64,000 nucleotides of DNA from Nannocystis bainbridge (GCF_028368995.1 NZ_JAQNDL010000004.1:352001-416000); one strand, 5' to 3'. Positions 2,275-59,625 are shown, counted from the first letter of the stretch. The notes: generated by a model not told the origin, from the sequence alone. A program made the numbers and translations.

Positions 2275-2338
2275 GACATGTCCCGAGGAGAATGTCCTGG
2301 GGGGCATGTCCCTGAGGACATGCCCGTGCGGACATGTC
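2275..2338. repeat. 14-bp-phased GACA/TGTC palindromic array (5 cores)
   Basis: Cores GACATGTC, AGAATGTC, GGCATGTC, GACATGCC, GACATGTC start at 2275, 2289, 2303, 2317, 2331. Confidence 0.9.
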
Positions 2339-2340
2339 CC

Positions 2341-2545
2341 TCAGGTCTTGTGGGCCAGGGCGGCGAGCACGGCGTCGGCGCCGAGGCGGAGCAGGAGCTC
2401 GGCGACCCCTCAGGGCTTGTGGGCGAGCGCGGCGAGTACGGCGTCGGCGCGGAGCGGAGCAGGAGCTCGGCGAGCCTCAGGTCTTGTGGGCGAGCGCGGC
2501 GAGCACGGCGTCGGCGCCGAGGCGGAGCAGGAGCTCGGCGACGGC
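2341..2545 (-). repeat. Tandem triplication (67-69 bp unit) of the hemC 3' end including its stop codon
   Basis: TCAGG(T/G)CTTGTGGGC...GCAGGAGCTCGGCGA starts at 2341, 2410 and 2477. Confidence 0.9.
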
Positions 2546-3475
2546 GGTGCCGAGGTCGGCGGCGTCGGCGGGCGGACCGACGCGGGCGGCGGTGAAGCAG
2601 GGGCGGCCGCTCGGGTCGGTGATGACGCCGCGGACGTGCAGGAGCTCGCCCTGCAGCTCGGCGTGGCAGCCCATCGGGACCTGGCAGCCGCCGTCGAGGC
2701 GGGCGAGGAAGGAGCGCTCGGCGGCGGCGACGGTGGCGGCGTGGGCGTCGTTCAGCGGGGCGACGAGGGCGCGCACGCGGTCGTCGTCGGCGCGGCTCTC
2801 GAGCGCGAGGATCCCCTGGCAGGCGGCCGGACAGAACTGTTCGGGGTCGAGGCGAGCGTCGATGCGCTCGCTCAGGCCGAGGCGGACGAGGCCGGCGGTG
2901 GCGAGCAGGATGGCGTCGTAGTCGCCGGCGTCGAGCTTGCGCAGGCGGGTGGGCACGTTGCCGCGCAGCGGGCGGATCTGCAGGCCAGGGTGGAGGCGCA
3001 GGGCCAGGGCGCCGCGGCGCAGGCTGGTGGTCCCGAGCGCGGCACCGGCGGGCAAGGACTGGATCGAGAGGTCGCTCGGGGCCTGTCCTTCGGGACAGAG
3101 AGCGGCGCGCAGGGCAGGGCCGAGGACGAGGGCGTCGCGGGCGTCCTCCCGCGGCGGGGTACAGACGATGGCGAGGCCGGGGTGCAGGCGCCCGGGCAGG
3201 TCCTTCATGCTGTGGACGGCGAGGTCGACTTCACCGGCGGCGAGTCGCTCCTCGATGGCGTTGACGAACAGACCCTTGCCGCCGATCTGGTTGAGCGGGC
3301 GGTCCTGGATCCGGTCGCCCTCGGTGGTGATGTGCACGAGCTCGACGGCGAGGCCGTCGCCCCAGACGGCGCGCAGCCGGTCGCGGATGTGGTGGGCTTG
3401 CCACAGCGCCAGCTCGGAGGCGCGAGTGCCGATCCGCAGCGGACGATCGAGGTCGGGCTTGGTCGAGGCGGTCAT
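2477..3475 (-). CDS. hemC: Porphobilinogen deaminase (hydroxymethylbilane synthase)
   Basis: RIGTRASELALWQA, GGKGLF, AVHSMKDLP, LRGNVPTRL, ERSFLARLDGGCQVP. Confidence 0.97.
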   Translation of the reverse strand: MTASTKPDLDRPLRIGTRASELALWQAHHIRDRLRAVWGDGLAVELVHITTEGDRIQDRPLNQIGGKGLFVNAIEERLAAGEVDLAVHSMKDLPGRLHPGLAIVCTPPREDARDALVLGPALRAALCPEGQAPSDLSIQSLPAGAALGTTSLRRGALALRLHPGLQIRPLRGNVPTRLRKLDAGDYDAILLATAGLVRLGLSERIDARLDPEQFCPAACQGILALESRADDDRVRALVAPLNDAHAATVAAAERSFLARLDGGCQVPMGCHAELQGELLHVRGVITDPSGRPCFTAARVGPPADAADLGTAVAELLLRLGADAVLAALAHKT

Positions 3476-3807
3476 GCCGGGCGGGGATGATAGCGCCTGC
3501 GCTCGCACGGGCGCCACCGGGGTCGGGCGCCCGGCCCCGGGGGCTCCGAGGGCCGGGGTCGGGCGGCGGGTGTCATCGAGGCGAGCAGGGCCGCGCGAAC
3601 GGCGAGCGCGCCGCCCTGGTGGCCGTCGACCTCGCACGCGGGGGATGCCGGCAATCCGTGACGGCGCTCGGGATCGATGAGGGGTCAGGCCTCGTGGCGT
3701 GCGTTGCCTTGGTGCGCAGTCGGTCGCGAGGCATGCTGGCCTCGGAGACCGGAGGCGGGCGGCAAGCAGTGCCCGCTCGGCGCAGGTCCGGCGAGAGGAC
3801 GAGGACG

Positions 3808-4143
3808 ATGATCCGCGTGATGTACTGGTGGAAGGTCGAGCCGGGCCAGGAAGATGCGTTCGCGGCGGCGTGGTCGCAGGTGACGCGGTGGATCCGGGAG
3901 CATAAACCGGGCGCTCGCGGCAGCTTGCTGCTGCGCAGCGCCGAGGACCCGCACGAGTTCGTGGCGATCGCCCGCTGGACCAGCCGCGAGGCGTGGGAGG
4001 CGTCGCCGCAGCTGGATGACGCCGAGATGCAGGTGCATCGGCAGACGATGCGGACGACGGCGGAACGCTCGCGCCCGGCCGTGTTCTTCGAGGAGGTGGC
4101 CGACCTGACGGTCAGCGACGAGGAGCGGGCAGGCGAGGCTTGA
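3808..4143 (+). CDS. Antibiotic biosynthesis monooxygenase (ABM)-like dimeric alpha/beta-barrel protein
   Basis: WKVEPGQEDAFAAAW...PGARGSLLLR...FVAIARWTSREAW pattern; GAGGA RBS upstream. Confidence 0.7.
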   Translation: MIRVMYWWKVEPGQEDAFAAAWSQVTRWIREHKPGARGSLLLRSAEDPHEFVAIARWTSREAWEASPQLDDAEMQVHRQTMRTTAERSRPAVFFEEVADLTVSDEERAGEA

Positions 4144-4199
4144 GGCGTGCCGGCGCTTCGCACGGCGCGGCGGGCACGTGGGAGACGCCTGGCGACAGG

Positions 4200-4263
4200 G
4201 ACATGTCGCTGAGGACATAAACCGAAGGACATGCCCATACGGGCATGTCCTCGAAAACATGTC
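4200..4263. repeat. 14-bp-phased GACA/TGTC array (5 cores)
   Basis: Cores at 4200, 4214, 4228, 4242, 4256 between convergent genes. Confidence 0.9.
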
Positions 4264-4265
4264 CT

Positions 4266-5126
4266 TCAGCGCTTGTCGGCCGGCGGGTCTTCGGGGGCGC
4301 CGCCGAGGCGGAACACGATCTCGCCGCGGATCTGGTCGGTCTCGACCCAGCCGATCGCCCGTGAGTCGCAGCAGGCGCCCTCGTCGCGGTTGTCGGCGAC
4401 GAGCAGGTAGCCGTCGGCGGGCATCTCGTAGGGGCCGCCGTCGGCGGGCACGCCCATGCCGGGCCAGGCGTCGGGGCCGGCGGTGCTGGCGAGGACCTGA
4501 TAGCGGCGATCGCCGATGATCTCGAAGGAGGTCGGGCGCCCGTTGGGCACGCCGGGGCCGTCGCCGGGCTTGTGCGCGAGCGGCTCGCCGTTGACGGCGA
4601 GGCCGAGGGCGCCGCGCGGATCGCCGAAGGTGACGGCGTCGCCGGGGAGGGCGAGGATCCGCGCGACCCGCAGGCTGCGCGGCGGCGGTCGCCCGGCGAC
4701 GCCGCTGCGCCGCTGGACCTTCTCCCACTCGTCGTCGAGGCCGAGCTCCTTGGCGTCGACGACGGCGGTGTTGCGCAGGCGATCGCGGGTGCCGGGCACG
4801 CGCGGACGCGCGTCGGGCAGGGGCCGCTCGCCGGGCAGCTCCTGCACGGGCGAGGGCTCGGGCGGCGGCGGCGGCGGCGTGGGGTCGTAGACGACGAGGT
4901 CGCCGCGGTCGAGGCCCCAGGTGCCGCGCACGAACAGGACGTGATCGCCGCTGCGGAGGTTGGGCGCCATGCCGTCGCCGTGGATCTCGACGACGGTGGC
5001 GAAGCTGCAGCGCAGCATCAAGAGAGCGGCGCCACCGACGAGCACGCCCCAGGCGAGCCGCGTCGGCCAGGTGCGATCCGGCGGCGCGGGGTAGTCGTCA
5101 GGCTCTGGTTCGCGGCGAAACAACAT
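4266..5126 (-). CDS. Signal peptidase I (S26)-like protein, catalytic Ser/Lys apparently substituted
   Basis: One N-terminal TM; box B-like IHGDGMAPNL; box D-like VARILALPGD; box E-like LVADNRD...DSR. Confidence 0.75.
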   Translation of the reverse strand: MLFRREPEPDDYPAPPDRTWPTRLAWGVLVGGAALLMLRCSFATVVEIHGDGMAPNLRSGDHVLFVRGTWGLDRGDLVVYDPTPPPPPPEPSPVQELPGERPLPDARPRVPGTRDRLRNTAVVDAKELGLDDEWEKVQRRSGVAGRPPPRSLRVARILALPGDAVTFGDPRGALGLAVNGEPLAHKPGDGPGVPNGRPTSFEIIGDRRYQVLASTAGPDAWPGMGVPADGGPYEMPADGYLLVADNRDEGACCDSRAIGWVETDQIRGEIVFRLGGAPEDPPADKR

Positions 5127-5781
5127 GCGAGGCGCGGAGCTGTTCGCTCAGCGCGGCGACATCTTGCTCGACCCGGGCGGGCGGACCAAAGAAGACGCCG
5201 ATCCCGGCGAGGGCCCGCGCGCCGGCGGCGAGGCAGGCGGCGGCGGTGGCCGGACCGACGCCGCCGAGGGCGACGAGGCAGGCGGCGGGCTCGGCGGCCC
5301 AGGCGCGCAGACCGTCGAGGCCGATCGGTCGCTTGCTGCCGAGCGGAGCGCCGGGCTGGGCGGTGGTCGGCGGGAAGACGGGGGCGACGAGGGTGTAGTC
5401 GACGAGGTGGTGGCCGGGCTGTGGGGGGCCGTGCACGGCCCGGCCGAGCAGGCCGGGCAGGCGCGGGCGCAGCTCGGCGAGGCGGACGAGCGAGGGGTCG
5501 CCGCGCAGGTGGAGGCCGTCGACGTCGGGCAGGCCGGCGGCGCGTAGGGCGTGCTCGGGATCGACGGCGAGCAGGATCGGGATCGCGCGCTCGCGGCAGC
5601 GGCGGACGACAGCGGCGAGGCGGCCGGCCGGATCGAGCAGAGCCTCCGGCGCGGCGCCAGGCTCGCGCAGGAGGACGGCCAGCGCGAGGTCGCCGGCACC
5701 GGCGCGCCAGCACCCGACGAGCTCGGGATCGACGGGGCCGGTCGGCGGGGTGATGGCGAGCAGATGGAAGGGCGGGGTCAC
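5098..5781 (-). CDS. thiE: Thiamine-phosphate synthase / TenI-like protein
   Basis: DGLHL, APVFPPTT, VALGGVGP, AAGARALAGI; downstream of thiG. Confidence 0.7.
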   Translation of the reverse strand: MTPPFHLLAITPPTGPVDPELVGCWRAGAGDLALAVLLREPGAAPEALLDPAGRLAAVVRRCRERAIPILLAVDPEHALRAAGLPDVDGLHLRGDPSLVRLAELRPRLPGLLGRAVHGPPQPGHHLVDYTLVAPVFPPTTAQPGAPLGSKRPIGLDGLRAWAAEPAACLVALGGVGPATAAACLAAGARALAGIGVFFGPPARVEQDVAALSEQLRASHVVSPRTRA

Positions 5782-5797
5782 GAGGACGCGCGCGCGT

Positions 5798-6574
5798 TCA
5801 CTCGATCATGCCCGCCGTCGGGCTCGAGGCGCTGCCGATCACGCGCGTGGGCATGCGGCCGGCGCGGAAGGCCTTGCGACCGGCGACGATGCCGTCGCGC
5901 ATGGCCTCGGCCATGAGCAAGGGGACCTGGGCGTGGGCCACGGCGGTGTTCATGAGCACGGCGGTGCAGCCGAGCTCCATGGCGATCGCGGCGTCGCTGG
6001 CGGTGCCGACGCCGGCGTCGACGATGACCGGGATCTTGGCCTGCTCGATGATGAGGCGGATGTTGTGCGGGTTGCGGATCCCGAGGCCGCTGCCGATCGG
6101 CGCCGCGAGCGGCATGACGGCGGCGCAGCCCATCGCCTCGAGCTTGCGGCAGACGATCGGATCGTCGGTGCAGTAAGGAAGGACGACGAAGCCCTCGTCG
6201 AGGAGGATCTTGGCGGCCTTGAGGGTCTCTTCGTTGTCGGGCAGGAGCGTGCGCGGGTCGCCGATGACCTCGAGCTTGACGAGGTCGGCGATGCCGAGCT
6301 CGCGCGCGAGGCGGAGCGTGCGAACGGCGTCGTCGGCGGTGTAGCAGCCGGCGGTGTTCGGCAGCAGCGTGTAGCGGCTGCGATCGATCCACGACAGCAG
6401 GTTGTCCTTGACCTTGAGGTCGACGCGGCGCAGCGCGACCGTCACGATCTCGGCGCCGCTGGCGGCCAGGCAGGCGCGCGTCTCCTCGGCGTCCTTGTAC
6501 TTGCCGGTGCCGATGATGAGGCGCGAGGTCAGGGTCCGACCGGCGAGGGTCCAGGTGTCGTGTGTATCGCTCAA
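5798..6574 (-). CDS. thiG: Thiazole synthase
   Basis: [46 protein letters not shown]. Confidence 0.97.
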
Positions 6575-6576
6575 TT

Positions 6577-6780
6577 TCAGCCTCCGCCGACGAAGGTGAC
6601 CACCTCGAGCCGGTCACCGTCGACCAGCTCGATCTGTGCGTAGGTGGCCCGTGGCACGATCTCTCGGTTGCGTTCGACCGCTACCTGCCGCGGATCCAGA
6701 CCCAGCGAGGCGACCAGCGCCGCGACCGTGGTCCCGGGCGCGAACGGGTGGGGCTCGCCGTTGAGCACGAGGGTCGGCAC
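6577..6780 (-). CDS. thiS: Sulfur carrier protein
   Basis: LVLNGE...[12 protein letters not shown]...EVVTFVGGG with C-terminal Gly-Gly; GTG start inferred. Confidence 0.93.
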
Positions 6781-6986
6781 GGGCGGAAAGGTACAACGAA
6801 CCGGGGGTGCGACGAGATGGCGCCATGTGCGCCGGCACGACATGGATCACAGCGTTGCCCAATTCACTCACCTGTGGCGATCGTGCAACAGGTACCCAGG
6901 GGCGCGATGATCGCCGTATTTTTGGAAGACTAATGGAAAATCAATGAGTTAGGCGTTTGACGCGCCGTGCCGGCGTTTGGCCCGCT

Positions 6987-7004
6987 TTGTGCTCACTCCC
7001 ACAA
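6987..7004. promoter_or_regulatory. Crp/MrpC-type palindrome TTGTG-N8-CACAA just before the mrpC-like start
   Basis: TTGTGCTCACTCCCACAA has TGT-N10-ACA spacing; ends 2 bp before the ATG at 7007. Confidence 0.45.
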
Positions 7005-7006
7005 GT

Positions 7007-7735
7007 ATGCACGTTGAGTCGGAATCCCGCCGTCCGAGCATCCCCCTGGAACGCATGGAAGCCCAGGATATCCTGTCCTGCGTCGAGCCCTTCACCGCTG
7101 CCCGCCCCGCCGAGTTGGAGGTGCTGGGGCGCACGGCCGTACGAGTCCGAAAGACGCCCGCCAGCATCCTCTGCCACGATGGGCAGCCGGCTGACGGCCT
7201 TTATATCGTGCTCCGTGGACGCATCAACCTGGTCCGCGCCGTCGATGGCAACCGCGACCTGATCCTGTCGAGCCTCGGGCCCGGCGAAGTGTTCGGCGAG
7301 AACTGCGCGATGCCCGGGATGGTGATGTCGACCACCGCCGTCGCCGCGGTGCAGAGCGAGATGCTGCGGATCCCCGGCGAGGCGCTCAGCGAGCACCTCC
7401 GGCGCGAGCCCGAGACCGTGGTCCGCTTGATGCGGATGCAGTACGAGAAGCTCCGCGAGGTCGAGGCGGTGGCGAGCGGCCTGGCGCTGTGTGACGTGGA
7501 GCAGCGGCTGCGCCGCACGCTCGCTCGCCTGGCGCGTCGGCAGGGCCGCCGCAACCCGGCGAGCGCCGGCTGGATCCTCGCGCCGGTGCCGACGCAGTCG
7601 GAGCTCGCGCGCATGGTCGGCTCGTGTCGTGAGACCGTGTCCCGCACGCTCAGCGCGATGGCCCGCAACGGCCTCGTCAGCGGCAGCGGCCGGCGCATGA
7701 TCCTCAACGACAGCCTCGTCAACGAGACGCCCTGA
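7007..7735 (+). CDS. mrpC: Crp/Fnr family transcription factor, MrpC-like
   Basis: cNMP-binding fold (LGPGEVFGE) plus HTH PTQSELARMVGSCRETVSRTL, closely resembling the Myxococcus MrpC recognition region as I recall it. Confidence 0.7.
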   Translation: MHVESESRRPSIPLERMEAQDILSCVEPFTAARPAELEVLGRTAVRVRKTPASILCHDGQPADGLYIVLRGRINLVRAVDGNRDLILSSLGPGEVFGENCAMPGMVMSTTAVAAVQSEMLRIPGEALSEHLRREPETVVRLMRMQYEKLREVEAVASGLALCDVEQRLRRTLARLARRQGRRNPASAGWILAPVPTQSELARMVGSCRETVSRTLSAMARNGLVSGSGRRMILNDSLVNETP

Positions 7736-7782
7736 AGCCCGCGGAATGTCGGCGAGGCCGGGCGCGTTGGGGGACGCGCCCG

Positions 7783-8994
7783 ATGCCACGTTCCCCGACT
7801 CCTCGTGCTAACTTCGGGCCCGTGGCTTATTCCGGGCCTGATCGTCGGGTCGCCGACCGCAGGCAAGCGCCGATCGTCGAAGTCCGGCCGACTTATGCGT
7901 ATGTCGACGCCGGCGCGATGGTCCACAACCTGCGCACCGTGCAGGCGGCCGTCGGTCCGCGCTGCCGCGTGCTCGCGGTGGTCAAGGCCGACGGCTACGG
8001 CCACGGCGCGATCGAGGCGGCCCGCACGTTCGTCGACGCCGGCGCGTGGGGCTGCGCGGTCAGCCTGGTCGAGGAGGGCGTCGAGCTGCGCCAGGCCGAG
8101 ATCCGCGCGCCGGTGCTGGTGCTCGGCGGGGTCCATCCGGGCTCCGAAGACGTGATCGTGCACCGCTCGCTGACGCCGGTGGTGTGGGCCCGCGAGCACC
8201 TGCAGCTGCTGTCCGCCGCGGTCCGTCGCAGCGGGGCGCCGCCGCTGCCGATCCACCTGAAGATCGACACGGGCATGTCGCGGCTCGGCGCGCTGCCCGG
8301 CCAGCTGCCGGAGTTCCTCGACTGGCTCGAGGGCGAGGACGGGCAGCACGTGCGGCTCGAAGGCGTGATGACCCACTTCGCCTGCGCCGACGAGCCGGAC
8401 GACGTGACGAGCCCGCGCCAGCTCGAGTCGTTCCGCGACAGCCTGGCGGCGCTGGCCAGCCGCGGGTTCCACCCGCCGATCCGCCACGTGTGCAACAGCG
8501 CGGGGCTGGTCCGCCTGCCGCACGCGCACTTCGACATGGTGCGCCCGGGCGTGGCGATCTACGGGGCGGCGTCGAGCCGCGAGGTCGAGCTGCCGGGGTT
8601 GAAGATGGCGATGAGCGTGCACTCGCGGATCCTCGGCATCCGCGAGCTGCCGGCCGGCGCGCGGGTGTCGTACGGGCACCGCATGGAGCTGACGCGGCCG
8701 TCGCGGCTCGGCATCGTCCCGGTCGGCTACGCCGACGGCTACCCGCGGCGCATGAGCGGGCAGGCGCAGGTGCTGGTCCGCGGGCACCGCTGTCGGGTGG
8801 TCGGCAACATCACGATGGACGTGTCGATGATCGACGTGACCGACCTGCCCGACGCCCGCGAGGGCGAGCGCGTGACGCTGCTCGGGGCCCAGGGGCGCGA
8901 CCGCATCGACGCCTACGAGCTGGCGCGTTGGGCTGATGTCATCCCGTACGAGATCCTGTGCGGGATCTCGAAGCGGGTGCCGCGGCGGGGGTAG
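7783..8994 (+). CDS. alr: Alanine racemase (start may be the GTG at 7822)
   Basis: AVVKADGYGHG PLP-Lys motif, HLKIDTGMSRLG, MTHFACAD, VPVGYADG, GNITMD, IPYEILCGI. Confidence 0.96.
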   Translation: MPRSPTPRANFGPVAYSGPDRRVADRRQAPIVEVRPTYAYVDAGAMVHNLRTVQAAVGPRCRVLAVVKADGYGHGAIEAARTFVDAGAWGCAVSLVEEGVELRQAEIRAPVLVLGGVHPGSEDVIVHRSLTPVVWAREHLQLLSAAVRRSGAPPLPIHLKIDTGMSRLGALPGQLPEFLDWLEGEDGQHVRLEGVMTHFACADEPDDVTSPRQLESFRDSLAALASRGFHPPIRHVCNSAGLVRLPHAHFDMVRPGVAIYGAASSREVELPGLKMAMSVHSRILGIRELPAGARVSYGHRMELTRPSRLGIVPVGYADGYPRRMSGQAQVLVRGHRCRVVGNITMDVSMIDVTDLPDAREGERVTLLGAQGRDRIDAYELARWADVIPYEILCGISKRVPRRG

Positions 8995-9005
8995 CGGAGC
9001 TTCGG

Positions 9006-9069
9006 GACATGTCGCGCAGGACATGTCCGTTCGGACAATGACGAAGGGACATGCTCTTTCGAGCATGTC
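9006..9069. repeat. 14-bp-phased GACA/TGTC array (5 cores)
   Basis: Cores at 9006, 9020, 9034, 9048, 9062. Confidence 0.9.
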
Positions 9070-9095
9070 CCTTGAGATAGCGACCAGCCCCGGGC

Positions 9096-10148
9096 TCAGT
9101 TGCCGGCGGGCGGGGGCGCGGAGGTGGTCGGCGGCTGGCTGCTGGCCGGGGGCTCGCCGCCGGCGGGCGGGGGCGCTCCGGCCTCGTTGCAGTCCTCGGA
9201 GCCGACGTAGTCCGGGTGGCATGGGTCGCTGATGTCCTGCACCTTGGGCGCCGCGGCGCCGCCGGTCTGGCTGACCGGCTTCGACCAGTTCACCTCGGTC
9301 TTGGCGAAGGTATTGGTGTTGCCGGCGTCGAAGATCTGCTCCTCGTTGACGTAGCTGTAGAGGTAGCGCTGGTCGGTGGCGAACAGGGCGGTGATCGTCG
9401 ACTGCTTCTTGACCTCGTGGCTGCCGCTCGAGGTGGTGGTGATCTCGGTCTCGTCGGTGTCGGTGATGAGCCGCGCGACGGTGATCGGCGGCTCGCCGGT
9501 CTGATAGAAGCCGTCGACCTTGCTGGTGACGGTGCCCTCGGAGTAGCGGCCGAGCTTGCCCTTGCGGCCGCGCTTCTTGTCGTCCTTCCAGGTGTCGCCG
9601 GCCTTGAGCGGGCGCGCGGGGACGGTGAGGAAGGCGGTCTCGAGGGCGTCCAGGGCCTGCTGGAGGACGACGCGGAGCTCGGCCGAGAGGTCCTCGGGGA
9701 GCTCGGGCATGTGGAGGATCTTGCCGGTGTCGTCGACGCTGAAGTCGACCTCGAGGCCCTGCAGCTGCTGGCCGGCGGTCCGGTTGAACTCGGCGACGCT
9801 GATCGGGAAGCTCGGCGGGAGGCTCCACTTGATCTGGACGGCGCTGAAGCGGGCAGTGACGGCGGTGCCGCCGTGGGCCTCGTCGGCGCCGCGCACGGTC
9901 AGCGTGAGATCGAAGCTGAAGCTCTGGGAGGAGCTGGTGGCGCTGGTGGCGGCGCGGATGGTGGCGCTGCGGCGCACGCTGCCCTGGTAGACCTGGCCCG
10001 CGGTGAGGTCGTAGCGCAGCGTGATGCCCTCGGCCGGCGCCTCGACCTTGGTGAGGCCGGGGCCGGTCTTGCACCCGGGCAGCGACGGAGCGGCACAGAG
10101 GACGAAGGCGAGGAGCCAGCGAGGGGCGCGAACCATGGCCCGGAACAT
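9096..10148 (-). CDS. Hypothetical exported protein / lipoprotein
   Basis: Signal peptide ending LPGC, beta-rich body, Pro-rich tail; normal codon usage. Confidence 0.7.
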   Translation of the reverse strand: MFRAMVRAPRWLLAFVLCAAPSLPGCKTGPGLTKVEAPAEGITLRYDLTAGQVYQGSVRRSATIRAATSATSSSQSFSFDLTLTVRGADEAHGGTAVTARFSAVQIKWSLPPSFPISVAEFNRTAGQQLQGLEVDFSVDDTGKILHMPELPEDLSAELRVVLQQALDALETAFLTVPARPLKAGDTWKDDKKRGRKGKLGRYSEGTVTSKVDGFYQTGEPPITVARLITDTDETEITTTSSGSHEVKKQSTITALFATDQRYLYSYVNEEQIFDAGNTNTFAKTEVNWSKPVSQTGGAAAPKVQDISDPCHPDYVGSEDCNEAGAPPPAGGEPPASSQPPTTSAPPPAGN

Positions 10149-18102: not shown

Positions 18103-18137
18103 ACGCCGCAGCGAGCAGTCGCTGCGGCGTTTGTTTT
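18103..18137 (+). terminator. Intrinsic terminator hairpin on the + strand
   Basis: ACGCCGCAGCGA-gcag-TCGCTGCGGCGT followed by TTGTTTT. Confidence 0.7.
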
Positions 18138-18165: not shown

Positions 18166-18198
18166 GAAAGCCCTCAGCGGAGTGCGCTGAGGGCTTTC
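18166..18198 (-). terminator. Terminator hairpin downstream of the tRNA pair
   Basis: GAAAGCCCTCAGCG-gagtg-CGCTGAGGGCTTTC, 14-bp stem, followed by GCCTTTT on the minus strand. Confidence 0.7.
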
Positions 18199-18202
18199 TG
18201 AG

Positions 18203-18274
18203 TGACCCTGTCGGGACTTGAACCCGAGCTTTCGGCGTGAGAGGCCAACGTCCTAACCGCTAGACTACAGGGCC
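18203..18274 (-). tRNA. tRNA-Glu (CTC)
   Basis: Reverse complement GGCCCTGTAGTCTAGCGGTTAGGAC...anticodon loop CT-CTC-AC...GGGTTCAAGTCCCGACAGGGTCA folds as a cloverleaf; CCA not encoded. Confidence 0.92.
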
Positions 18275-18295
18275 AGAAACTCTCGGACGTGGTAG

Positions 18296-18366
18296 TTCGG
18301 GGACAGGGATTCGAACCCCGATAGGCGGTACCAGAAACCGCAGTCCTACCATTAGACGATCCCCGA
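18296..18366 (-). tRNA. tRNA-Gln (CTG)
   Basis: Reverse complement TCGGGGATCGTCTAATGGTAGGACT-GCGGT-TTCTGGT-ACCGC...GGTTCGAATCCCTGTCCCCGAA folds as a cloverleaf. Confidence 0.92.
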
Positions 18367-18454
18367 AGAAGGGCGAAGCGCCGGAGAGGGGGTGTTGGTG
18401 GGTTCGAACCTTTCGGTCTGAACCGCGCCCCTGGGCGCGTCCGAGGTGCGGGGG

Positions 18455-18483
18455 AAGATGCTCCAAGCCTCGGCGGGTGTCAA
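18455..18483 (-). promoter_or_regulatory. sigma70-type promoter of the tRNA operon
   Basis: Minus strand TTGACA-17 bp-CATCTT, upstream of tRNA-Gln. Confidence 0.7.
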
Positions 18484-18554
18484 GCATGATTTGGAAGCGA
18501 CGGCGATGTGCGGATGGCGCGACAGTCGGAGGGAGGCCATGTAAGGTTTCGGCC

Positions 18555-20372
18555 ATGTCCGCCCCGCTGAAACCGTCCGCATCCCTGGCCCTGACGCTCT
18601 GGCTCGTCGCGGGAGCGCTCGCGTGCAAACCCGCCGCACCTGCGGCGAGCCCGGCTCCCGGGCCCTCGGGTGCGCCTGGTGCGCAGGAATCGGACGCGCA
18701 GGGACCGGCGAGCGGGAGATCACTCCCCGCCAAGGATGCGGGCGATCCCGCGACGGCCGTGGGCATAAATGGCGCGGTGACCTCGGCCGAGCGCCACGCC
18801 AGCGAGGTCGGCGTGGCGGTCTTGAAGAAGGGCGGCAACGCGGTCGACGCGGCGGTCGCGGTCGGGCTGGCGCTGGCAGTGACCCACCCGAGCGCCGGGA
18901 ATCTCGGCGGCGGCGGGTTCATGGTGATCCGCATGGCCGACGGCCGCACCGCGGCGATCGACTACCGCGAGGTCGCGCCCGCGGCGGCGACGCCGACCAT
19001 GTACCTCGACGCCAAGGGCAACCCCACGCGCGAGAGCGTCGAGGGCCCGAAGGCGGCCGGGATCCCGGGCACGGTCGCGGGCTTGGCGCTGGCGCATGAG
19101 CAGTTCGGCACGCTGCCGTGGCGAGATCTCGTACTTCCCGCCGTGGCGCTCGCGCGCGACGGTCACGCGCTCGACAGCTTCCACGCCGAGGATTTGACCA
19201 CCGGCAGCGAGCGGATGCTGAAGCTGGGCTTCAAGGACGCGGCGGCGATCTACCGCCGACCGACGGGCGAGGCCTTCGTCACCGGCGACACGTGGAAGCA
19301 GCCCGACCTGGCGCGCACGCTCGAGGCGATCGCCGATCGCGGGCCGCGGGCGTTTTACGAGGGGCCGCTGGCGGACAAGCTGGCGAGCGAGGTCAAGGCG
19401 CTGGGCGGGATCTGGACCCCCGACGACCTCAAGGCCTACCGCGCGGTGGCTCGCACGCCGATCACCTTCACCTACCGCGACCACGAGGTGATCACGATGC
19501 CGCCGCCGTCGGGCGGTGGGGTGGTGCTGCGGCAGCTGCTGGCGGCGCGCGAGATCCTCAAGATCTACGAGAAGCCGTGGCTCAGCGTCGACGAGCTGCA
19601 CCTCTACGTCGAGTCGGCGCGGCGCACCTACGCCGACCGCAACTTCCTGCTCGGCGATCCGGCGTTCGTGAAGATCCCGCTCGAGCAGCTGACCGACTCG
19701 AAGTACCTGCAGGGGCGCCTGGCCGACATCGACCCGAACAAGGCCACGCCGTCGTCGAAGATCGCGGCCGGGATCGGCACCAAGACCTCGATGCAGACGA
19801 CCCACTACTCGGTCGTCGACGTGCTCGGCAACGCGGTCGCCAACACCTACACCCTCAACACCGGGTTCGGCGCCAAGGTGGTCGTGCCGGGCACGGGGGT
19901 GCTGCTCAACAACGAGATGGACGACTTCTCGGTCAAGCCGGGCTCACCCAACACGTTCGGGCTGGTGCAGGGCGAGCAGAACAAGATCGAGCCAGGCAAG
20001 CGCATGCTGTCGAGCATGAGCCCGACGATCCTGGTCAAGGACGGCAAGCTGCGCGCGGTGGTCGGCACGCCGGGCGGCTCGACGATCTCGACGACGGTGA
20101 CCCAGATCGTGCGCGCGCTGATCGACTACGGCGCGACCATCGACCAGGCCGTCAAGGCGCCGCGGGTCCATCACCAGTGGATGCCGGACCGCATCGTCAC
20201 CGAGCCGACGCTCGACCCCGCGACCGTCGAGGGGCTCAAGGCCAAGGGGCACACGATCGGCGAGTGGCCGTCGATCGGCCACGCCAACTCGATCGAGGTC
20301 GACCCGAAGACGCAGGGCTACCGCGCGGTCGCCGACATCGCCCGCGACGGCGGGGCCGCGGTCGCGTACTGA
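18555..20372 (+). CDS. ggt: Gamma-glutamyltransferase (lipoprotein signal)
   Basis: GGNAVDAAVA, GNLGGGGF, IDYREVAP, QTTHYSVVD (nucleophile Thr), LNNEMDDF, KRMLSSMSP. Confidence 0.95.
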   Translation: MSAPLKPSASLALTLWLVAGALACKPAAPAASPAPGPSGAPGAQESDAQGPASGRSLPAKDAGDPATAVGINGAVTSAERHASEVGVAVLKKGGNAVDAAVAVGLALAVTHPSAGNLGGGGFMVIRMADGRTAAIDYREVAPAAATPTMYLDAKGNPTRESVEGPKAAGIPGTVAGLALAHEQFGTLPWRDLVLPAVALARDGHALDSFHAEDLTTGSERMLKLGFKDAAAIYRRPTGEAFVTGDTWKQPDLARTLEAIADRGPRAFYEGPLADKLASEVKALGGIWTPDDLKAYRAVARTPITFTYRDHEVITMPPPSGGGVVLRQLLAAREILKIYEKPWLSVDELHLYVESARRTYADRNFLLGDPAFVKIPLEQLTDSKYLQGRLADIDPNKATPSSKIAAGIGTKTSMQTTHYSVVDVLGNAVANTYTLNTGFGAKVVVPGTGVLLNNEMDDFSVKPGSPNTFGLVQGEQNKIEPGKRMLSSMSPTILVKDGKLRAVVGTPGGSTISTTVTQIVRALIDYGATIDQAVKAPRVHHQWMPDRIVTEPTLDPATVEGLKAKGHTIGEWPSIGHANSIEVDPKTQGYRAVADIARDGGAAVAY

Positions 20373-20519
20373 GAGCCGGGCGCCGAGCGGCTGTCGTAGC
20401 TGCGCGAGAGCCCGCGCAGGGCCGCTCCGGGTGGCTTCTGCGACGGACCGCCGGGTGCGGACCCGGCCAGTCTTGGCGATCGGCAGCTGAAGGGGGCGCG
20501 CAGCGTAGCGTCCCTTCGG

Positions 20520-20584
20520 GACATGTCTAGGAGAGCATGTCCTTACGCACCTGTCGCTACGGGCATGTCCGAAAGGGAACGTTC
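20520..20584. repeat. 14-bp-phased GACA/TGTC array (4-5 cores) overlapping a stop codon
   Basis: Cores at 20520, 20534, 20548, 20562; weaker GAACGTTC at 20577. Confidence 0.8.
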
Positions 20585-25214: not shown

Positions 25215-25248
25215 TCGACCCGCCAGCGCCGCGCGCCCAGACCGCCCA

Positions 25249-25328
25249 CACATGTCTCGAGGGACATGTGTGGCGGGCGATCACGATGTGTCTCTCGGGA
25301 CAGGATGAGCTGTCCAAATGGACAGCTC
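25249..25328. repeat. Three separate TGTC-N6-GACA palindromes
   Basis: TGTC-tcgagg-GACA, TGTC-tctcgg-GACA, TGTC-caaatg-GACA. Confidence 0.85.
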
Positions 25329-25329
25329 G

Positions 25330-29535: not shown

Positions 29536-29874
29536 TCACTCGCCGAAGCCGAGGCGGCGGCGGACGCGGGCCGCGAGGTCGCGGGCGCGGCTGGCGGGGC
29601 CGAGGGCGCGGGGAGGCGGGGCGCCGGGGAGGCTGTCCGATGGGACCTGTCGCTTGCGACCTGTCCGAAAGGACGTGGTCGCAAGGGCAGGTGCTTGCAT
29701 GAGCAGCTTGACGAGCGCTGTCACCAGCTCGACCGGGCTGTCGGCGCGGACCTCGAGGCCGACCTTGCCGCCTGGGTCCTCCGCGGCGCCGCGCGCGACC
29801 GTGCGCGTGCCATCGGAGCGGACCTCGATGACGATCCGGCTGACGATCGGGAGATCCTCGTCCGCGCTGCTCAT
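29536..29874 (-). CDS. Small hypothetical protein
   Basis: Well-formed N-terminal alpha/beta domain (RIVIEVRSDGTRTVARGA); the C-terminal part is encoded across a motif array. Confidence 0.6.
   Translation of the reverse strand: MSSADEDLPIVSRIVIEVRSDGTRTVARGAAEDPGGKVGLEVRADSPVELVTALVKLLMQAPALATTSFRTGRKRQVPSDSLPGAPPPRALGPASRARDLAARVRRRLGFGE
29634..29692. repeat. 14-bp-phased array inside a CDS (4 units)
   Basis: TGTC at 29634, 29648, 29662 and TGGT at 29676, each followed N6 later by GACC/GACC/GACG/GGCA. Confidence 0.8.
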
Positions 29875-31550: not shown

Positions 31551-31577
31551 GCTGCGAGTCCACGGTCGCGGCAGGGC

Positions 31578-31725
31578 TGTCCTCGAGGACAGGCGCGGGC
31601 CCGCTCGGTGGACGCGACGCGGCTGTCCTCGGGGACATGTTCTTCGCGGCTGCGCCGAGATGGTCGAGGTCCCGGGACGTGGCTCTCAGAGCATGTTCAA
31701 AACGACATGTCTGAAGGGACATGCC
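31578..31725. repeat. TGTC-N6-GACA sites plus a 14-bp-phased array
   Basis: Single sites at 31578 and 31624; phased cores at 31676, 31690, 31704, 31718. Confidence 0.85.
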
Positions 31726-31795
31726 CGATCGCGGACGCACGAACGGCGCGGGCCCGAGGGGCGCCGCGCCGTTCGGGGGCCGCGGAGGGCGCGGC

Positions 31796-35624: not shown

Positions 35625-40867
<5,243 letters not shown>

Positions 40868-41479: not shown

Positions 41480-41703
41480 GCCCGGCGCCCGGAGTGAGCT
41501 GGCCCGAAGGACAGGTCGTCGAGACGACGCGCGCGGCTCGACGCGTGCGGTGTGCATCGGTCGGGCGGCGACTCTGCCGTACGGGCTTCGTGGCGCTCCT
41601 CCACGGCTGTCACGAAGCCCTCACGCCGACAGCAGCGCCCGAAAGCACCAGAGCCCGCCAGCGAAGCTGACGGGCCCTGCGAGGACTCGACCGGGAGGCG
41701 CGC

Positions 41704-45586: not shown

Positions 45587-48500
45587 ATGCGAATCAAGAA
45601 GATCGAGGTCAACGGGTTCAAGTCCTTCGCCGACCGCGAGGTCATCCACGTCGACGACCACGTGACCGCGATCCTCGGGCCCAACGGCTGCGGCAAGTCG
45701 AACGTCGTCGACGCGATGCGCTGGTGCCTCGGCGAGCAGCGGGCCAAGCACCTGCGCGGCCAGGGCATGGCCGACGTCATCTTCGCCGGCTGCTCGACGC
45801 GCGGCCCCGGCAACGCCGCCGAGGTGACGCTGACCTTCCAGAACAACGGCCAGGTCCCGGCGGCCTACCTCAATTTCGCCGAGATCGCGGTCACCCGCCG
45901 GCTGTACCGCGACGGCACCAGCGAGTACCTCATCAACAAGGTGCAGTGCCGCCTGCGCGACATCCAGGAGCTGATGGCCGGCACCGGCGCGGGCACGCGC
46001 GGCTACTCGATCATCGAGCAGGGCCAGGTCGGCCGGATCGTCAGCTCCAAGGCCGAGGAGCGCCGCTACATCATCGACGAGGCGGCCGGCATCACCCGCT
46101 TCAAGGCCCAGAAGCAGGCCGCCGAGAAGAAGATCGAGCAGACGCAGCAGAACCTGCTGCGGGTGTCGGACGTGCTGACCGAGCTCGAGGCGCGGGTCGG
46201 CAACCTGCGCCGGCAGGCGCAGAAGGCCGAGCGCTACAAGCGCTACCGGTCCGAGCTGCGCGACCTCGATCTGTGGATCGCCAGCCATCGGTTCCTCGAG
46301 CTCGAGGCGACGCGGCGCGTGCTCGAGGTCCGCAAGGGCGAGCTCGGGGTGCAGGTCGACGACATGCGGGCCAACCTGGCGGCCGCCGACGCGCGCGGCG
46401 AGGCCCAGCGGACCGAACTGCTGCAGCGCGAGCAGGAGCTGCGCGCGGCCCAGACGACGGTGTTCGACCTCGACAACCGCATCAAGCTGGCCGAGAGCGA
46501 GGGCCAGTTCCGCCGCCGCGAGCAGGAGGGGGCCCGCCAGGCGGTCACACAGGCCCGCGCCGAGGCGGCCGCGGCCGAGCGCTCGCTGACGGCCCTGCGC
46601 GGGGAGCTCGAGCAGGTCACGTCCCAGCTCGAGGATCTGCGCGCCGGCGCCGACGAGGGCCACGCCGAGGTCGCGGCGCGCCTGCAGGAGGAGCACGACG
46701 GGCTGACGGCGCGGCTGCGCGGCGAGGTGTCCGAGTTCGAGCGCGGGCGCTCGCAGCTGGCGCGCCTGCAGCAGCGCGAGGCGACCGCGTCGGCTCAGCT
46801 GCAGGCCCGCGCCGAGGGCCTGTCCGACCTCGAGCAGCGGATCTCGGGCCTGGCCCAGGAGACAGAATTGCTGGTGATCCAGCTCGAGCGCGACCGCGAG
46901 GATCTCGAGGTCGCCGAGTCCGCCCGCGAGGCCGCGGCCGAGCGGGTCGCGGGCCTCAACGACCGTCGCAGCGCCGGCGACCGCGAGAAGCAGGCGCTCA
47001 AGGGCCAGATCAAGTCGGCCGAGCAGACCCACGACGGCGTGCGCACGCAGCTGCAGCGGACCCAGTCGCGGGTGCAGTCGCTCGAGGAGATCCAGAAGCG
47101 CTACCGCGGCTGCGCCAGCGGGGTGCAGACGGTGATCCAAAACCGCGAGGCGATCGCGGCGGAGGCCGGCGGGGCGATCCTCGGCATCCTCGCCGACCAC
47201 GTGGCCGCGCCGGCCAAGTTCGAGCCAGCGCTGTCGGCGGTGCTCGGCGACCGCCTGCAAGGGGTGGTCGTCGACGGCGTGCGCGCCAGCGCCAGCGCGG
47301 TCGCTTTGCTCAAGGCCAAGCAAGAGGGTCGGACCTCGTTCCTGCCGCGCGAGTGCCGGCCGCGCCGCTCCGAGCATGGCTCCCAGGACATGTCCGATGC
47401 GCCAGGTGCTTACGGACCTGGCCTCGAGGACATGCTCCAGAGGCCAGGCGTGGTCGGCCGCCTGGTCGACGCGATCGACGTGCCGGGGGAGCTGCGGCCG
47501 CTGGCCCGCGCGCTGCTCGGCGACACGGTGGTGGTCGAGGACCTGCCCCAGGCGCTCGAGCTGTGGCAGGCCGGGGCGACCGCGCCGCTGGTGACCCTGG
47601 CCGGCGACCGCGTCGAGCCCTCGGGGGTGGTGATCGGCGGCTCGGCGCAGGGGCTCGACTCGGCGCTGCTGCAGCAGAAGCGGGAGATCCGCGAGCTGCA
47701 CGAGCAGGCGGCCACGCGCGAGGTCGAGGTCGCGGCGGCGTACGAGCAGGTGCAGGTGCTGGCCGAGCGCCAGTCGCAGCTCGAGGCCGAGCGCGAGATG
47801 AGCGAGGCGGAGCTGCTCGAGTCGGAGAAGGTCCGGCTGGCGCGGGTGCAGGAGGTCAGCCGGCTGCAGCGGGAGATCCAGCAGCTGGGCCAGCGGATCG
47901 ATCAGCTGACGCGCGAGCGCGCCAAGCTGCAGGCGTCGCTCGGCGGCCGCGAGGAGGAGCGGGCGCGCCTGACCGAGGAGCTGGGGCAGGTGCGCGAGGA
48001 GCTGCCGGGGCTGCAGCAGACGATCGTCGACGCCGAGGCGCGCATCGAGCTGCTGCGCGAGCAGCAGGCGCAGGTGTCGGAGATGTTGACCGAGGCCAAG
48101 GTGGCGCTGGCGCGCTTCCAGCAGCAGCTCGGGGCGCTGACGGCGGCCGAGGGCCGGCTGTCGCGCCAGGTCGCGGCCGAGGACGAGCGCCTGCAGCGGC
48201 TCGGGCAGACCCAGATCGAGGGCGAGGCCAAGATCGCGGCGCTCGAGGAGGCGCTGCAGGCGGCCGAGGCCGAGCGCGAGCAGCAGCTCGAGGCGCACCG
48301 CGTGGCGACCGCGACGCTGCAGGCCGCGCGCGAGGCCCACGACGCGGTCCGCCTGGCCACCGACGAGCTCGACCTGTCGGTCCGCAAGCTGCGCAACGGG
48401 CTCGACGAGCAGCGCGAGCGCCTGGCCGAGGTCGAGAGCGTGCTCAAGGAGCAGCGCATGGAGGCGCAGCACCTGAGCGCCGACATCCGCGAGCGCTTCG

Positions 48501-49233: not shown

Positions 49234-49303
49234 TGTCCGCGAGGGCATGTCCACAAGGGCATGTCCGAAGGGGCATGTCCGCGAGAGCATGTCCTTGGGG
49301 GCA
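49234..49303. repeat. 14-bp-phased array, 5 complete TGTC-N6-RGCA units
   Basis: TGTC at 49234, 49248, 49262, 49276, 49290. Confidence 0.92.
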
Positions 49304-52320: not shown

Positions 52321-52328
52321 AGACGGCG

Positions 52329-52402
52329 GGCATGCTCGATCGAGCATGTCCGATGGAACATGGCAAATCGGACATGTCGTGAGCGACATGTCCGAAGACG
52401 CA
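52329..52402. repeat. 14-bp-phased array (5-6 cores)
   Basis: Cores at 52329, 52343, 52357, 52371, 52385, (52399). Confidence 0.9.
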
Positions 52403-52408
52403 GCCGGG

Positions 52409-54070: not shown

Positions 54071-54183
54071 ACCGCTGCGGGGCCGCGGGCCCGGGGAGCG
54101 ACGGCGCCGCGACGTCACGGGGCCATCGGCTGCGACGGGCGTGACGCGCGGGAAGGCGCGAGGTATCCTTCGCGCCCTCTCGC

Positions 54184-57567
<3,384 letters not shown>

Positions 57568-57594
57568 ACTGATCGCGGGCGCGGCACCCCGACG

Positions 57595-57626
57595 CGCATG
57601 AACGAGAGAACATGTCTCGAGAGACA
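57595..57626. repeat. Short 14-bp-phased array
   Basis: CGCATGAA 57595, AACATGTC 57609, GACAG 57623. Confidence 0.65.
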
Positions 57627-57740
57627 GACATTATGCGCTGACTGCGCGTGTGGTCGATGTCTTCCAGGCGCGCGAGCGGCCGTACGCCCGGTGCGAGGTC
57701 GAGTGACGGAGGCGTGGGGCTGGAGTAGATTTCTCCCCGA

Positions 57741-58826
57741 ATGTCCTCGCCCGCATGGTTCATTCGCTCCGTCTCGGTGCAGAAGTTCGGGTGCCTCAAG
57801 GACGTGAACGCAGCGTTGACGCCGCTGCACGCGTTCATCGGGCCGAACGATAGCGGCAAGAGCACGCTGCTGCGCGCGCTGCGGACGGCGATGCACCTGG
57901 TTCGAAGGTCATTTATTCGCGCGCCGAATGACGAAATTCAGCCCTTTGATCCGGGACCACTCTGTAGCGGGACGGCCATGCAGCTCGCCTTCGGGCCAGA
58001 TCGTGCAAAGAGCCATTTCAACTTGAAGATCCTCGATGAGGGTAACTTCGCGGAGTCCGGTGGGTCGAAGCCGTTGCTGGCGTCTCAGCGAAGCTGGATC
58101 GGGCCGCGGTCGACCAAACGAGGTTCAACGCTAACGTGGCCTCCGGAGATTTTGCCGCTGCTCGACTCGGGCGCTCGGCTCGTGCACCTAAACCCGAGCT
58201 CGCTGCGTGAGCCGAGCGAGCTCATCCCTGAGGGCGGTGGAAACGAGCTCATCGACGAGTACGGGCGGGGGCTGCCGGCCATTTACGACGCAATCCTCAA
58301 TCGCGGGGATGATGCATTCTTGCGCATGGTCGAGGGCGTTCGTCGTTTGTTTCCGACGATCAAGGCAGTCCGCCTCAAGGTGATGTCGAAGAGCACTAAG
58401 GCGCTGGAGGTGGAGCTTGTTTCGGGGGAGCGAGTGCCCGCGGCATTCCTCAGCGAGGGGCTCCTGTTCTATCTCGCCTTCGCGGCGTTGCAGCACCTCG
58501 ATCCGGTCGCGCTGTTGCTGATCGAGGAGCCCGAGAATGGGCTGCACCCGGCGCGAATCGCCGACGTCATGCGGATCCTGCGGGAGATCTCGAGTACGAC
58601 GCAGGTGGTGCTGACGACCCATAGTCCGCTCGTGATCAACGAGATGCAGGGCGACGAGGTCAGCGTGGTCACGCGCGATCGAGACAAGGGCACGATGGTC
58701 CGTCGCCTCGACTCGACCCCGAACTTCATCGAGCGCTCGAAGGTCTACGCCCTCGGAGAGCTGTGGCTGAGCTACGCGAACGGCGACGACGAGGGGCCGC
58801 TGCTCACCGCGCAGGTCGTGACATGA
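57741..58826 (+). CDS. ABC-type (AAA_21/AAA_15-like) ATPase, putative defence component
   Basis: Walker A GPNDSGKST, signature LSEG, Walker B LLIEEPENGLHP, H-loop TTHSP; more AT-rich codons than flanking genes. Confidence 0.88.
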   Translation: MSSPAWFIRSVSVQKFGCLKDVNAALTPLHAFIGPNDSGKSTLLRALRTAMHLVRRSFIRAPNDEIQPFDPGPLCSGTAMQLAFGPDRAKSHFNLKILDEGNFAESGGSKPLLASQRSWIGPRSTKRGSTLTWPPEILPLLDSGARLVHLNPSSLREPSELIPEGGGNELIDEYGRGLPAIYDAILNRGDDAFLRMVEGVRRLFPTIKAVRLKVMSKSTKALEVELVSGERVPAAFLSEGLLFYLAFAALQHLDPVALLLIEEPENGLHPARIADVMRILREISSTTQVVLTTHSPLVINEMQGDEVSVVTRDRDKGTMVRRLDSTPNFIERSKVYALGELWLSYANGDDEGPLLTAQVVT

Positions 58827-59437
58827 AGCGCGTCGTCCTCGGCGGGGAAGGGCCGAACGAGCTCGGCGGCTGGTGCAACCTGCCCCCGTATCGCGCAGAA
58901 ACACCGGTTCCGGGGGTGCTCGAGGCGCTGTTGCGGCACGTCCGTCCTGACGGATGGATCGTCATCGACGCCGTAGTTTGGAGCTCGATCCGGAAGTATC
59001 GCGCCGGAGGTCACGCGGACGCCGAGGAGCGCAACGTGCTCGGTCTGGTCTTGAAGGCGCGAGAGCGCGGCGCCGACATCGTCGCCTTCGCGCGCGACTG
59101 CGACGGCGACGGAGCGCAGCACCGCCGCCGAATCGCCTCGATCGACGTCGGGCTCGCGCGCGCGCGCGAAGAGTTTCCGCAGGGTCCAGCCGTGATTGGT
59201 GGGAGCGCCGTGCGCATGCTCGAGGCTTGGGTCCTCGCTATCGGCGGCGAGCGACGGACCGAAGAGATGGGTCGAGAGGGACTTGAGACGGGATTTCAGC
59301 GGTTCCAGATCCCGCTCAAGAAGACCCCTGCGCTGGTCGACTTTGTTCAGAAGGCGGACCTCGGCAGGATTCCCGCCGATGCCGTGTCGCTGACGAAATG
59401 GTTGGCGCGAGCGCGTGAGGTCCTCGCTCCGTCTTGA
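58823..59437 (+). CDS. TOPRIM-like (DUF4276/RloB-type) putative nuclease partner
   Basis: N-terminal strand then EGPNE, FARDCDGD (DxD), MLEAWVL; ATGA overlap with the ATPase. Confidence 0.65.
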   Translation: MKRVVLGGEGPNELGGWCNLPPYRAETPVPGVLEALLRHVRPDGWIVIDAVVWSSIRKYRAGGHADAEERNVLGLVLKARERGADIVAFARDCDGDGAQHRRRIASIDVGLARAREEFPQGPAVIGGSAVRMLEAWVLAIGGERRTEEMGREGLETGFQRFQIPLKKTPALVDFVQKADLGRIPADAVSLTKWLARAREVLAPS

Positions 59438-59455
59438 GCACGCCTCGATCCGCTG

Positions 59456-59625
59456 GGCATGTCCGAACGGTCAGCAGCGATGAACGCTCGGGACATGTCG
59501 CTCGCGGTCTAGACCCCACTCGTCCGGCGCGAATGGCTGGCACTCGGGACATGTCCTGTCGGTCAGACTGGTTGACCGATCTCTGGCGCTAGCGAGCGGC
59601 TGGCACTCGGGACATGTCCCTCGCG
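59456..59625. repeat. Cluster of GACATGTC sites including a 22-bp direct repeat
   Basis: Cores at 59456, 59492, 59548, 59611; GGCTGGCACTCGGGACATGTCC at 59535 and 59598. Confidence 0.8.

Follow-up and report, generated by a model that had tools for sequence, protein, structure and literature searches.

A 64,000-nucleotide (nt) stretch of Nannocystis bainbridge DNA, hereafter the window, carries head-to-tail arrays of a 10-bp perfect palindrome, GGACATGTCC, which concentrate at the 3′ ends of genes and, above all, at the junctions between converging genes. The anatomy, placement, pairing covariation, folding, and apparent genus restriction of these arrays point to a new, untagged family of elements resembling repetitive extragenic palindromic (REP) sequences, which probably acts as a transcribed 3′-end hairpin. 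We hold this reading with guarded confidence, the function being deduced from sequence features.

The first-pass annotation of the window had described a motif that marks convergent gene junctions and avoids divergent promoters. The sequence shared by its sites is GGACATGTCC, for which Tandem Repeats Finder (TRF) returned a period of 14 nt, i.e., the 10-mer unit plus a 4-nt spacer. The window (G+C content of 72%) contains 36 sites with at most one mismatch to this palindrome against 1.52 expected, a count that none of 100 shuffles reached, as well as 19 copies of the 8-mer GACATGTC (0.64 expected). The phase is strict: in 1.05 Mb of related sequence, 324 pairs of sites are spaced by 14 nt and only 2 each by 13 and 15 nt, with further peaks at 28 nt (n = 146), 42 nt (n = 102), and 56 nt (n = 34). 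The CATG center of the unit is 91 to 98% invariant, and asymmetric units of the AC and GT types (n = 236) prevail over symmetric GC-type units (n = 38). The 4-nt spacers are diverse, without a dominant GNRA or UUCG loop, and successive spacers within an array are identical at an average of 1.07 of their 4 positions. They are thus unrelated to each other, which indicates that the arrays are not fresh 14-nt duplications and led us to rule out simple tandem duplication as their origin.

A scan of a collection of species-representative genomes with a two-unit pattern returned at least 87 matching loci. Among the matches listed, 74 belong to Nannocystis (N. exedens, N. pusilla, N. punicea, N. radixulma, Nannocystis sp. 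RBIL2, and several metagenome-assembled genomes) and the remaining 13 come from unrelated taxa, with a single match each, so that on this set the GGACATGTCC repeats appear to be a genus-specific family. The SMC hinge encoded in the window shares 91% identity with its counterpart in Nannocystis sp. RBIL2. An Rfam search of the whole window at gathering thresholds identified two tRNAs and nothing else, and a search of positions 1-10000 yielded nothing at an E value of 1 or better. Judged by the titles and the openings of abstracts of the matches listed, the literature on Nannocystis and myxobacterial repeats describes no such family. Among the matches listed, publications retrieved with the motif string deal mostly with p53 and include no bacterial study, and those retrieved by combining REP-associated tyrosine transposases (RAYTs) with Myxococc cover only unrelated topics.

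Gene orientations in the window were assigned by means of Pfam and a codon-usage gene caller trained on the Pfam-supported genes of the window, and tRNA genes were located with ARAGORN. The window contains 13 strict arrays. They are present in 6 of the 10 convergent spacers and 2 of the 33 tandem ones, but in none of the 10 divergent ones (Fisher tests; p = 0.011 for convergent versus divergent and p = 8e-4 for convergent versus tandem). Motif-related sequence occurs at all 10 convergent junctions, 7 of which have at least one site with no more than one mismatch. Every convergent site of the first-pass annotation was recovered, albeit in weak form near 41500, and its report that divergent intervals are avoided also held: none of those it listed contains an array, a single one-mismatch site (18551-18560) touching the edge of the interval 18367-18554. 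Seven window arrays were absent from its list, two in tandem spacers (49243 and 60678) and five within open reading frames (ORFs).

The same bias emerged from a wider survey of the genus. The 74 Nannocystis loci were merged into 68 segments, and the 63 of at least 3 kb were used together with the window, giving 1.07 Mb with 917 called genes, in which 199 arrays were identified. Genes were predicted with the same codon-usage caller, unvalidated on these loci, and ten segment pairs are orthologous, so that some junctions are counted in two species; megablast revealed no overlap between the window and the survey loci. Of these arrays, 101 lie in convergent, 44 in tandem, and 2 in divergent spacers; another 48 fall within called ORFs, and 4 sit at the edges of loci. 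Arrays occupy 89 of 172 convergent (52%), 40 of 493 tandem (8%), and 2 of 188 divergent (1%) spacers, and the proportions are similar in the ∼1 Mb of other Nannocystis DNA, without the window (83/162, 38/460, and 2/178, respectively). Normalized for length, as the first-pass annotation had proposed for a check of its claim, these figures correspond to 3.5, 0.58, and 0.04 arrays per kb of non-array spacer. Since the loci had been selected for holding an array, the test was repeated on spacers lacking the ascertaining match, which gave 29/107 convergent, 26/448 tandem, and 2/178 divergent (p = 7e-12 and 3e-9). The ascertained arrays themselves number 55 convergent, 12 tandem, and 0 divergent, whereas 10.9, 33.9, and 22.2 would be expected from spacer length (p = 2e-47). 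Placement at convergent junctions is therefore real and strongly nonrandom, as claimed, although it amounts to enrichment and not to confinement, given the tandem and in-ORF arrays counted above. Arrays within genes are both shorter and less well paired (Watson-Crick pairs, 65% versus 77%), only 3 of 71 strict-pattern arrays lie inside ORFs, and motif density in genes is 0.17 per kb, compared with 2.9 to 9.6 per kb in convergent spacers.

This uneven density bears on whether the palindrome could be a DNA uptake sequence (DUS), i.e., a genus-specific 10-mer tag for a competence system. The Neisseria DUS (compare the uptake signal sequence, USS) accumulates as paired copies in terminators, and the Nannocystis 10-mer is likewise strongly overrepresented, genus specific among the matches listed, often arranged in pairs that form 3′ hairpins, and tolerated in some ORFs. 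However, multiunit arrays in strict 14-nt phase are unexpected of an uptake tag, as is a density that differs so widely between genes and convergent spacers, and we regard this explanation as very improbable.

The arrays are closely tied to stop codons. In tandem spacers, they lie a median of 21 nt past the upstream stop and 197 nt ahead of the next start (p = 3e-4), and at convergent junctions the median distance from the array start to the nearer stop is 12 nt. A stop codon falls within 15 nt of the first strict unit at 97 of 246 array-adjacent 3′ ends, with stop-to-first-unit distances peaking at 6 nt and at 11 to 13 nt. These offsets place TGA inside an adjoining decayed unit, where GGA or TGT becomes TGA; stop codons are thus embedded in the outermost units, and some genes terminate within the array proper (e.g., stop at 20543). 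The shortest convergent spacers are preferred, since 33 of the 52 with less than 50 nt of non-array DNA hold an array. Because the motif avoids promoter-bearing spacers and stays close to stop codons, it is not a classical operator, in agreement with the earlier annotation. Nor does it behave as an array of operators, with only 2 of 188 divergent spacers occupied and deviations from the consensus compensated in neighboring units. Among the functions which that annotation had offered (a protein roadblock or termination signal, an mRNA 3′-end element, or a site handling positive supercoils), a 3′-end element or termination signal is the best supported, by both the distances to stop codons and the stable hairpins predicted on the two strands.

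Each unit is its own reverse complement, so that neighbors can pair and the resulting hairpin is identical on both strands. The basic module (unit, loop, unit) spans 24 nt and folds into a 10-bp stem with a 4-nt loop. In the 22 intergenic five-unit arrays, unit pairs (1,2) and (4,5) matched better than partner-swapped controls, with only 5 and 3 of 2000 shuffles reaching the observed values, compared with 1275 and 1734 for pairs (2,3) and (3,4). Decay is greatest in unit 3, with 2.86 deviations versus 1.2 to 1.9 in the other units. The five-unit element is therefore made of two hairpins around a decayed middle unit. Consistently with pairing, the variable positions 3 and 8 covary between neighboring units (odds ratios of 1.75 and 2.0; p = 0.02 and 0.004), whereas within one unit they tend the opposite way (odds ratio of 0.66).

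These patterns also help to judge whether the arrays are read as DNA. A dimeric protein could sit on each palindrome, the 14-bp phase corresponding to three dimers per four helical turns, and the arrays would then serve as a roadblock, an insulator, or sites for gyrase or a nucleoid protein between converging polymerases; binding of gyrase and IHF has been reported for REP clusters of E. coli. The perfect 10-bp palindrome with its nearly invariant CATG center, the strict spacing kept even between nonpairing units, and the freedom of the spacers to vary all fit this idea. Yet deviations are compensated in the neighbor and tend to anticorrelate within the unit, asymmetric units far outnumber the symmetric ones, and in five-unit arrays decay of the middle unit is tolerated. 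Independent protein-binding sites in a row are thus disfavored, and we consider a DNA-read signal improbable. A particular form of it, in which a Nannocystis dimeric protein bound to CATG palindromes marks where transcription units end, the occupied arrays acting as insulators or as topological barriers between converging polymerases and hairpin potential being a by-product, seems a shade less probable still.

Folding energies support an RNA hairpin. Those predicted for the window arrays range from −27 to −56 kcal/mol, with z scores of −2.4 to −7.9 on both strands. In a comparison of up to 40 spacers sampled per class (40 to 160 nt, mononucleotide shuffles), convergent spacers without a strict array were also structured (median z of −2.05; 16/32 below −2), in contrast to divergent spacers (median z of −0.16; 4/40 below −2; p = 4e-6), which suggests that a hairpin is generally wanted at convergent junctions. 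The remark in the first-pass annotation that most of these junctions lack U-tailed hairpins was borne out, since, of the 202 outward flanks at convergent arrays, only 16 have four or more T residues in 8 nt. A terminator scan of the first 20 kb flagged one of three arrays; the arrays have the hairpin of an intrinsic terminator and lack its U-tract. Canonical U-tailed hairpins exist at 18103-18130 (+) and 18166-18198 (−), next to the tRNA-Glu and tRNA-Gln genes (18202-18366, −), indicating that the organism has classical intrinsic terminators too.

Orthologous junctions in sister species (86 to 98% overall identity) retain the array, but its number of units and its loops are much less conserved than the flanks. 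Across the ten orthologous segment pairs, mismatch rates were 0.104 at third codon positions (3787/36340), 0.115 in other spacer DNA (1503/13081), 0.101 in array cores (37/368), and 0.323 in array spacers (31/96; p = 6e-8 against other spacer DNA). Such fast array spacers point to replacement of units or register shifts and not to point mutation, and this rapid turnover, by which arrays gain, lose, or exchange units, is in keeping with a repeat family whose copying continues. At the junction 8001-8066 of loci L050 and L070, from species 96.5% identical overall, one loop differs at all four positions (gcag versus tctc) with both stems kept, and a T-to-C change converts a G-U into a G-C pair.

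This turnover is an argument for a selfish or neutral repeat that is copied by transposition, gene conversion, or slippage, the 3′ bias reflecting purging from promoters and coding DNA. Besides the excess divergence of array spacers, the nearly neutral divergence of the cores, the wholesale change of unit number and loops at a given junction, the spread of CCTG and CAGG subvariants as direct copies, the presence of the family in one genus among the matches listed, and the arrays in permissive parts of ORFs all speak in its favor. Against it, arrays prefer the shortest convergent spacers, not the roomiest, array-free convergent spacers are structured as well, as if a hairpin were wanted, and, for all their turnover, arrays are retained at a given junction in different species. 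Moreover, neither a RAYT nor another transposase look-alike was found among the only 6 genes flanked on both sides by arrays in 1.07 Mb, a very small sample, whose Pfam matches are DUF294, VIT, cyclase, Hsp70, and VWA, with one gene left without assignment. We rate a purely selfish or neutral origin as a strong rival, on balance rather unlikely but clearly less so than the protein-binding explanations; it is, in any case, compatible with the 3′-end hairpin reading, E. coli REPs being held to be both.

Several observations weigh against a 3′-end hairpin. The 48 of 199 arrays inside called ORFs are awkward for a strong terminator. The cores diverge like third codon positions, with no extra constraint on the stem detectable. 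At the two central positions (5 and 6), variants have spread by direct copying, with no compensating change. In tandem-spacer arrays, sense-strand G-U pairs exceed A-C mismatches (66 versus 45), but not significantly (p = 0.057), and pairing alone would not demand so invariant a CATG center. We nonetheless favor the hairpin reading, with arrays that begin at or within ∼12 nt of stops and are often the sole sequence between converging genes. In the mechanism that we propose, the elements would be transcribed as mRNA 3′ ends, where the hairpins, despite having no U-tract, would stop or slow read-through from both sides, probably assisted by Rho as in the case of E. coli REPs, and would block 3′-to-5′ exonucleases, whereas selection would purge copies landing in promoters or most coding DNA. 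Arrays fill about half of the sampled convergent junctions, which suggests that this very G+C-rich genus depends, where its genes end, on hairpins lacking a U-tract. Extrapolation from the window puts their number on the order of a few thousand per 12-Mb Nannocystis genome, and the family would be convenient for studying how such hairpins end or protect transcripts and of practical use as a marker of 3′ ends in the annotation of Nannocystis genomes.

Within the window, the clearest examples are five-unit arrays at convergent junctions. That at 2274-2339, identified by TRF and the motif scan, lies between hemA (stop at 2235, +) and hemC (stop at 2477, −); its units 3 and 4 (GGGCATGTCC/GGACATGCCC) are exactly complementary, and its RNA folds at −52.0 (+) and −49.5 (−) kcal/mol (z of about −6.2 on both strands). 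It adjoins a 67-bp tandem repeat (2338-2542; 90% matches) comprising three copies of the last ∼60 nt and stop of hemC, of which solely the innermost copy ends the hemC ORF at 2477. The array at 4199-4264 (z of −7.9 and −6.6) separates an ABM gene (stop at 4143, +) from an S26 peptidase gene, whose minus-strand stop codon (4266-4268) falls in the spacer directly after the last unit. Between alr (stop at 8994, +) and a lipoprotein gene (stop at 9096, −), the array at 9005-9070 consists of two hairpins (units 1-2 and 4-5) flanking a decayed unit 3 (z of −5.6 and −6.2). The fourth, at 52328-52393, fills the spacer from an antiporter gene (stop at 52320, +) to an alpha/beta hydrolase gene (stop at 52409, −) with two near-perfect hairpins (z of −5.3 and −4.6).

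Other convergent junctions hold shorter or more degenerate versions. A four-unit array at 20519-20570 (z of −3.4 and −2.4) follows ggt (stop at 20372, +) and includes the minus-strand stop (20543) of the opposing phosphoesterase gene. Between a lipoprotein gene (stop at 25214, +) and purM (stop at 25330, −), degenerate motif hairpins at 25248-25329, ACACATGTCT-cgag-GGACATGTGT and GAGCTGTCC-aaat-GGACAGCTC, stay under the strict array threshold and still fold with z scores of −4.8 and −4.2. Downstream of alkA (stop at 29400, +), the first-pass annotation had placed an array within the 3′ end of a hypothetical gene. Four in-phase units with two to three mismatches are indeed present at 29643-29694, but the gene itself is doubtful: the ORF 29536-29874 (−) has a poor coding score of 24 and no Pfam match, so that the units may occupy a plain convergent spacer between alkA and a 2-oxoglutarate oxygenase gene. 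Scattered units at 31574-31726, among them a strict two-unit array at 31703-31726, lie between a redoxin gene (stop at 31310, +) and a Cys-rich gene (stop at 31796, −); upstream of them, the same spacer contains an unrelated tandem repeat (31375-31550) with ∼5 copies of a 35- to 37-nt unit. The weak site mentioned above is a single unit with two mismatches, GGACAGGTCG, at 41509-41518 between a lipoprotein gene (stop at 41479, +) and a minus-strand gene (stop at 41704). Finally, four motif sites out of 14-nt phase are found at 59455-59619, between a gene ending at 59437 (+) and a Cys-rich gene (stop at 59627, −), and two of them belong to a longer repeat, GGCTGGCACTCGGGACATGTCC, present as two copies 63 nt apart (59533-59620). 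The stretch at 57741-59437 preceding these sites has a G+C content of 0.66, below the rest of the window, and may be a defense island. It specifies an ABC-type ATPase that matches the PADLOC candidate defense families HEC-01A, AriA, and GajA/Old (best E value of 7e-32), followed by a 204-amino-acid gene without a PADLOC or Pfam match.

The two arrays in tandem spacers are a four-unit one at 49243-49294 (z of −5.1), 23 nt past the smc stop (49219, +) and before an SDR gene, and a seven-unit one at 60678-60771 (z of −5.4), which on the minus strand starts 1 nt past the stop of the gene at 60773-61780 and lies upstream of a HAD hydrolase gene. Three of the in-ORF arrays (36411-36448, 37397-37420, and 38097-38176, +) are in a 1744-codon ORF for a kinase/GAF/sigma-54 activator, where the coding-frame signal runs on through them with dips. 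One dip spans both the array at 38097-38176 and an adjoining 54-bp repeat at 37909-38053 (2.7 copies; 86% matches). The in-phase units within smc (47386-47437, +; offsets of 0, 28, and 42) are translated as QDMS...EDML in a hinge linker of variable length. In Nannocystales SMC hinges, the linker from FLPR to PGVVGRL varies greatly in length and is short in Nannocystis, and a DMS motif recurs in more distant relatives. Because the linker is variable in all relatives compared, an insertion event for the smc array is not demonstrable. The fifth, a two-unit array at 61824-61847, lies 42 nt inside the 3′ end of an HD-domain gene (61782-62879, −).

The arrays differ from other palindromic repeats that enter genes. 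Rickettsia palindromic elements (RPEs) are repeats inserted in frame, and the Nannocystis arrays resemble them as palindromic repeats residing in permissive linkers of intact ORFs. Unlike RPEs, however, the in-ORF copies are a shorter minority, and in smc an insertion cannot be traced. The likeness to 3′ stem-loops and bidirectional terminators is closer: according to Petrillo et al. (2006; PMC1590033), stable stem-loops in all bacteria favor convergent spacers and the 50 nt that follow stop codons, and the Nannocystis arrays are likewise stable hairpins in convergent spacers, tens of nt after stops, symmetric and usable both ways. In contrast to intrinsic terminators, they have neither a U-tract nor an A-tract, and a single sequence family provides the hairpins.

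The arrays are most reminiscent of REPs and bacterial interspersed mosaic elements (BIMEs), with which they share short hairpin-forming palindromes, a high copy number (hundreds to thousands), species or genus specificity, and clustering in arrays. They correspond to REPs in the broad sense, as short (20- to 40-nt), dispersed, high-copy hairpin palindromes placed extragenically downstream of genes, the in-ORF arrays excepted. The 147 intergenic Nannocystis arrays are distributed 69/30/1.4% among convergent, tandem, and divergent spacers, compared with ∼60, ∼40, and ∼1% of E. coli REPs, which occupy 207 of 704 convergent spacers, according to a recent preprint (bioRxiv 10.64898/2026.03.23.713779). 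The same preprint describes most E. coli REPs as lacking poly-U and acting as partial Rho-dependent terminators and exonuclease blocks. According to Di Nocera et al. (2013; PMC3733652), REPs show the same spacer bias in many genomes and also occur inside genes, and the tagged superfamilies bear a conserved GTAG or CGTC tetranucleotide at one end of the palindrome. The absence of a poly-U tract and the presence of some copies in genes are common to REPs and the Nannocystis family. The in-ORF share is nonetheless larger than in E. coli, whose REPs have been termed "all extragenic," and the Nannocystis hairpin arms are themselves perfect 10-bp palindromes in a strict 14-nt period, unlike those of REPs. 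Both tags are depleted in the arrays plus 6 nt on each side relative to array-free spacers (GTAG, 0.19 versus 1.3 per kb; CGTC, 2.1 versus 9.2 per kb), which places the family outside the tagged REP superfamilies. The first-pass annotation overlooked that the placement it described is the known behavior of REPs and stable stem-loops. Since this pattern is their established signature, the placement rule alone teaches nothing new and, although real, is ordinary. Collectively, what sets the Nannocystis elements apart is an untagged family with palindromic arms, a strict 14-nt phase, and stop codons within its outermost units.

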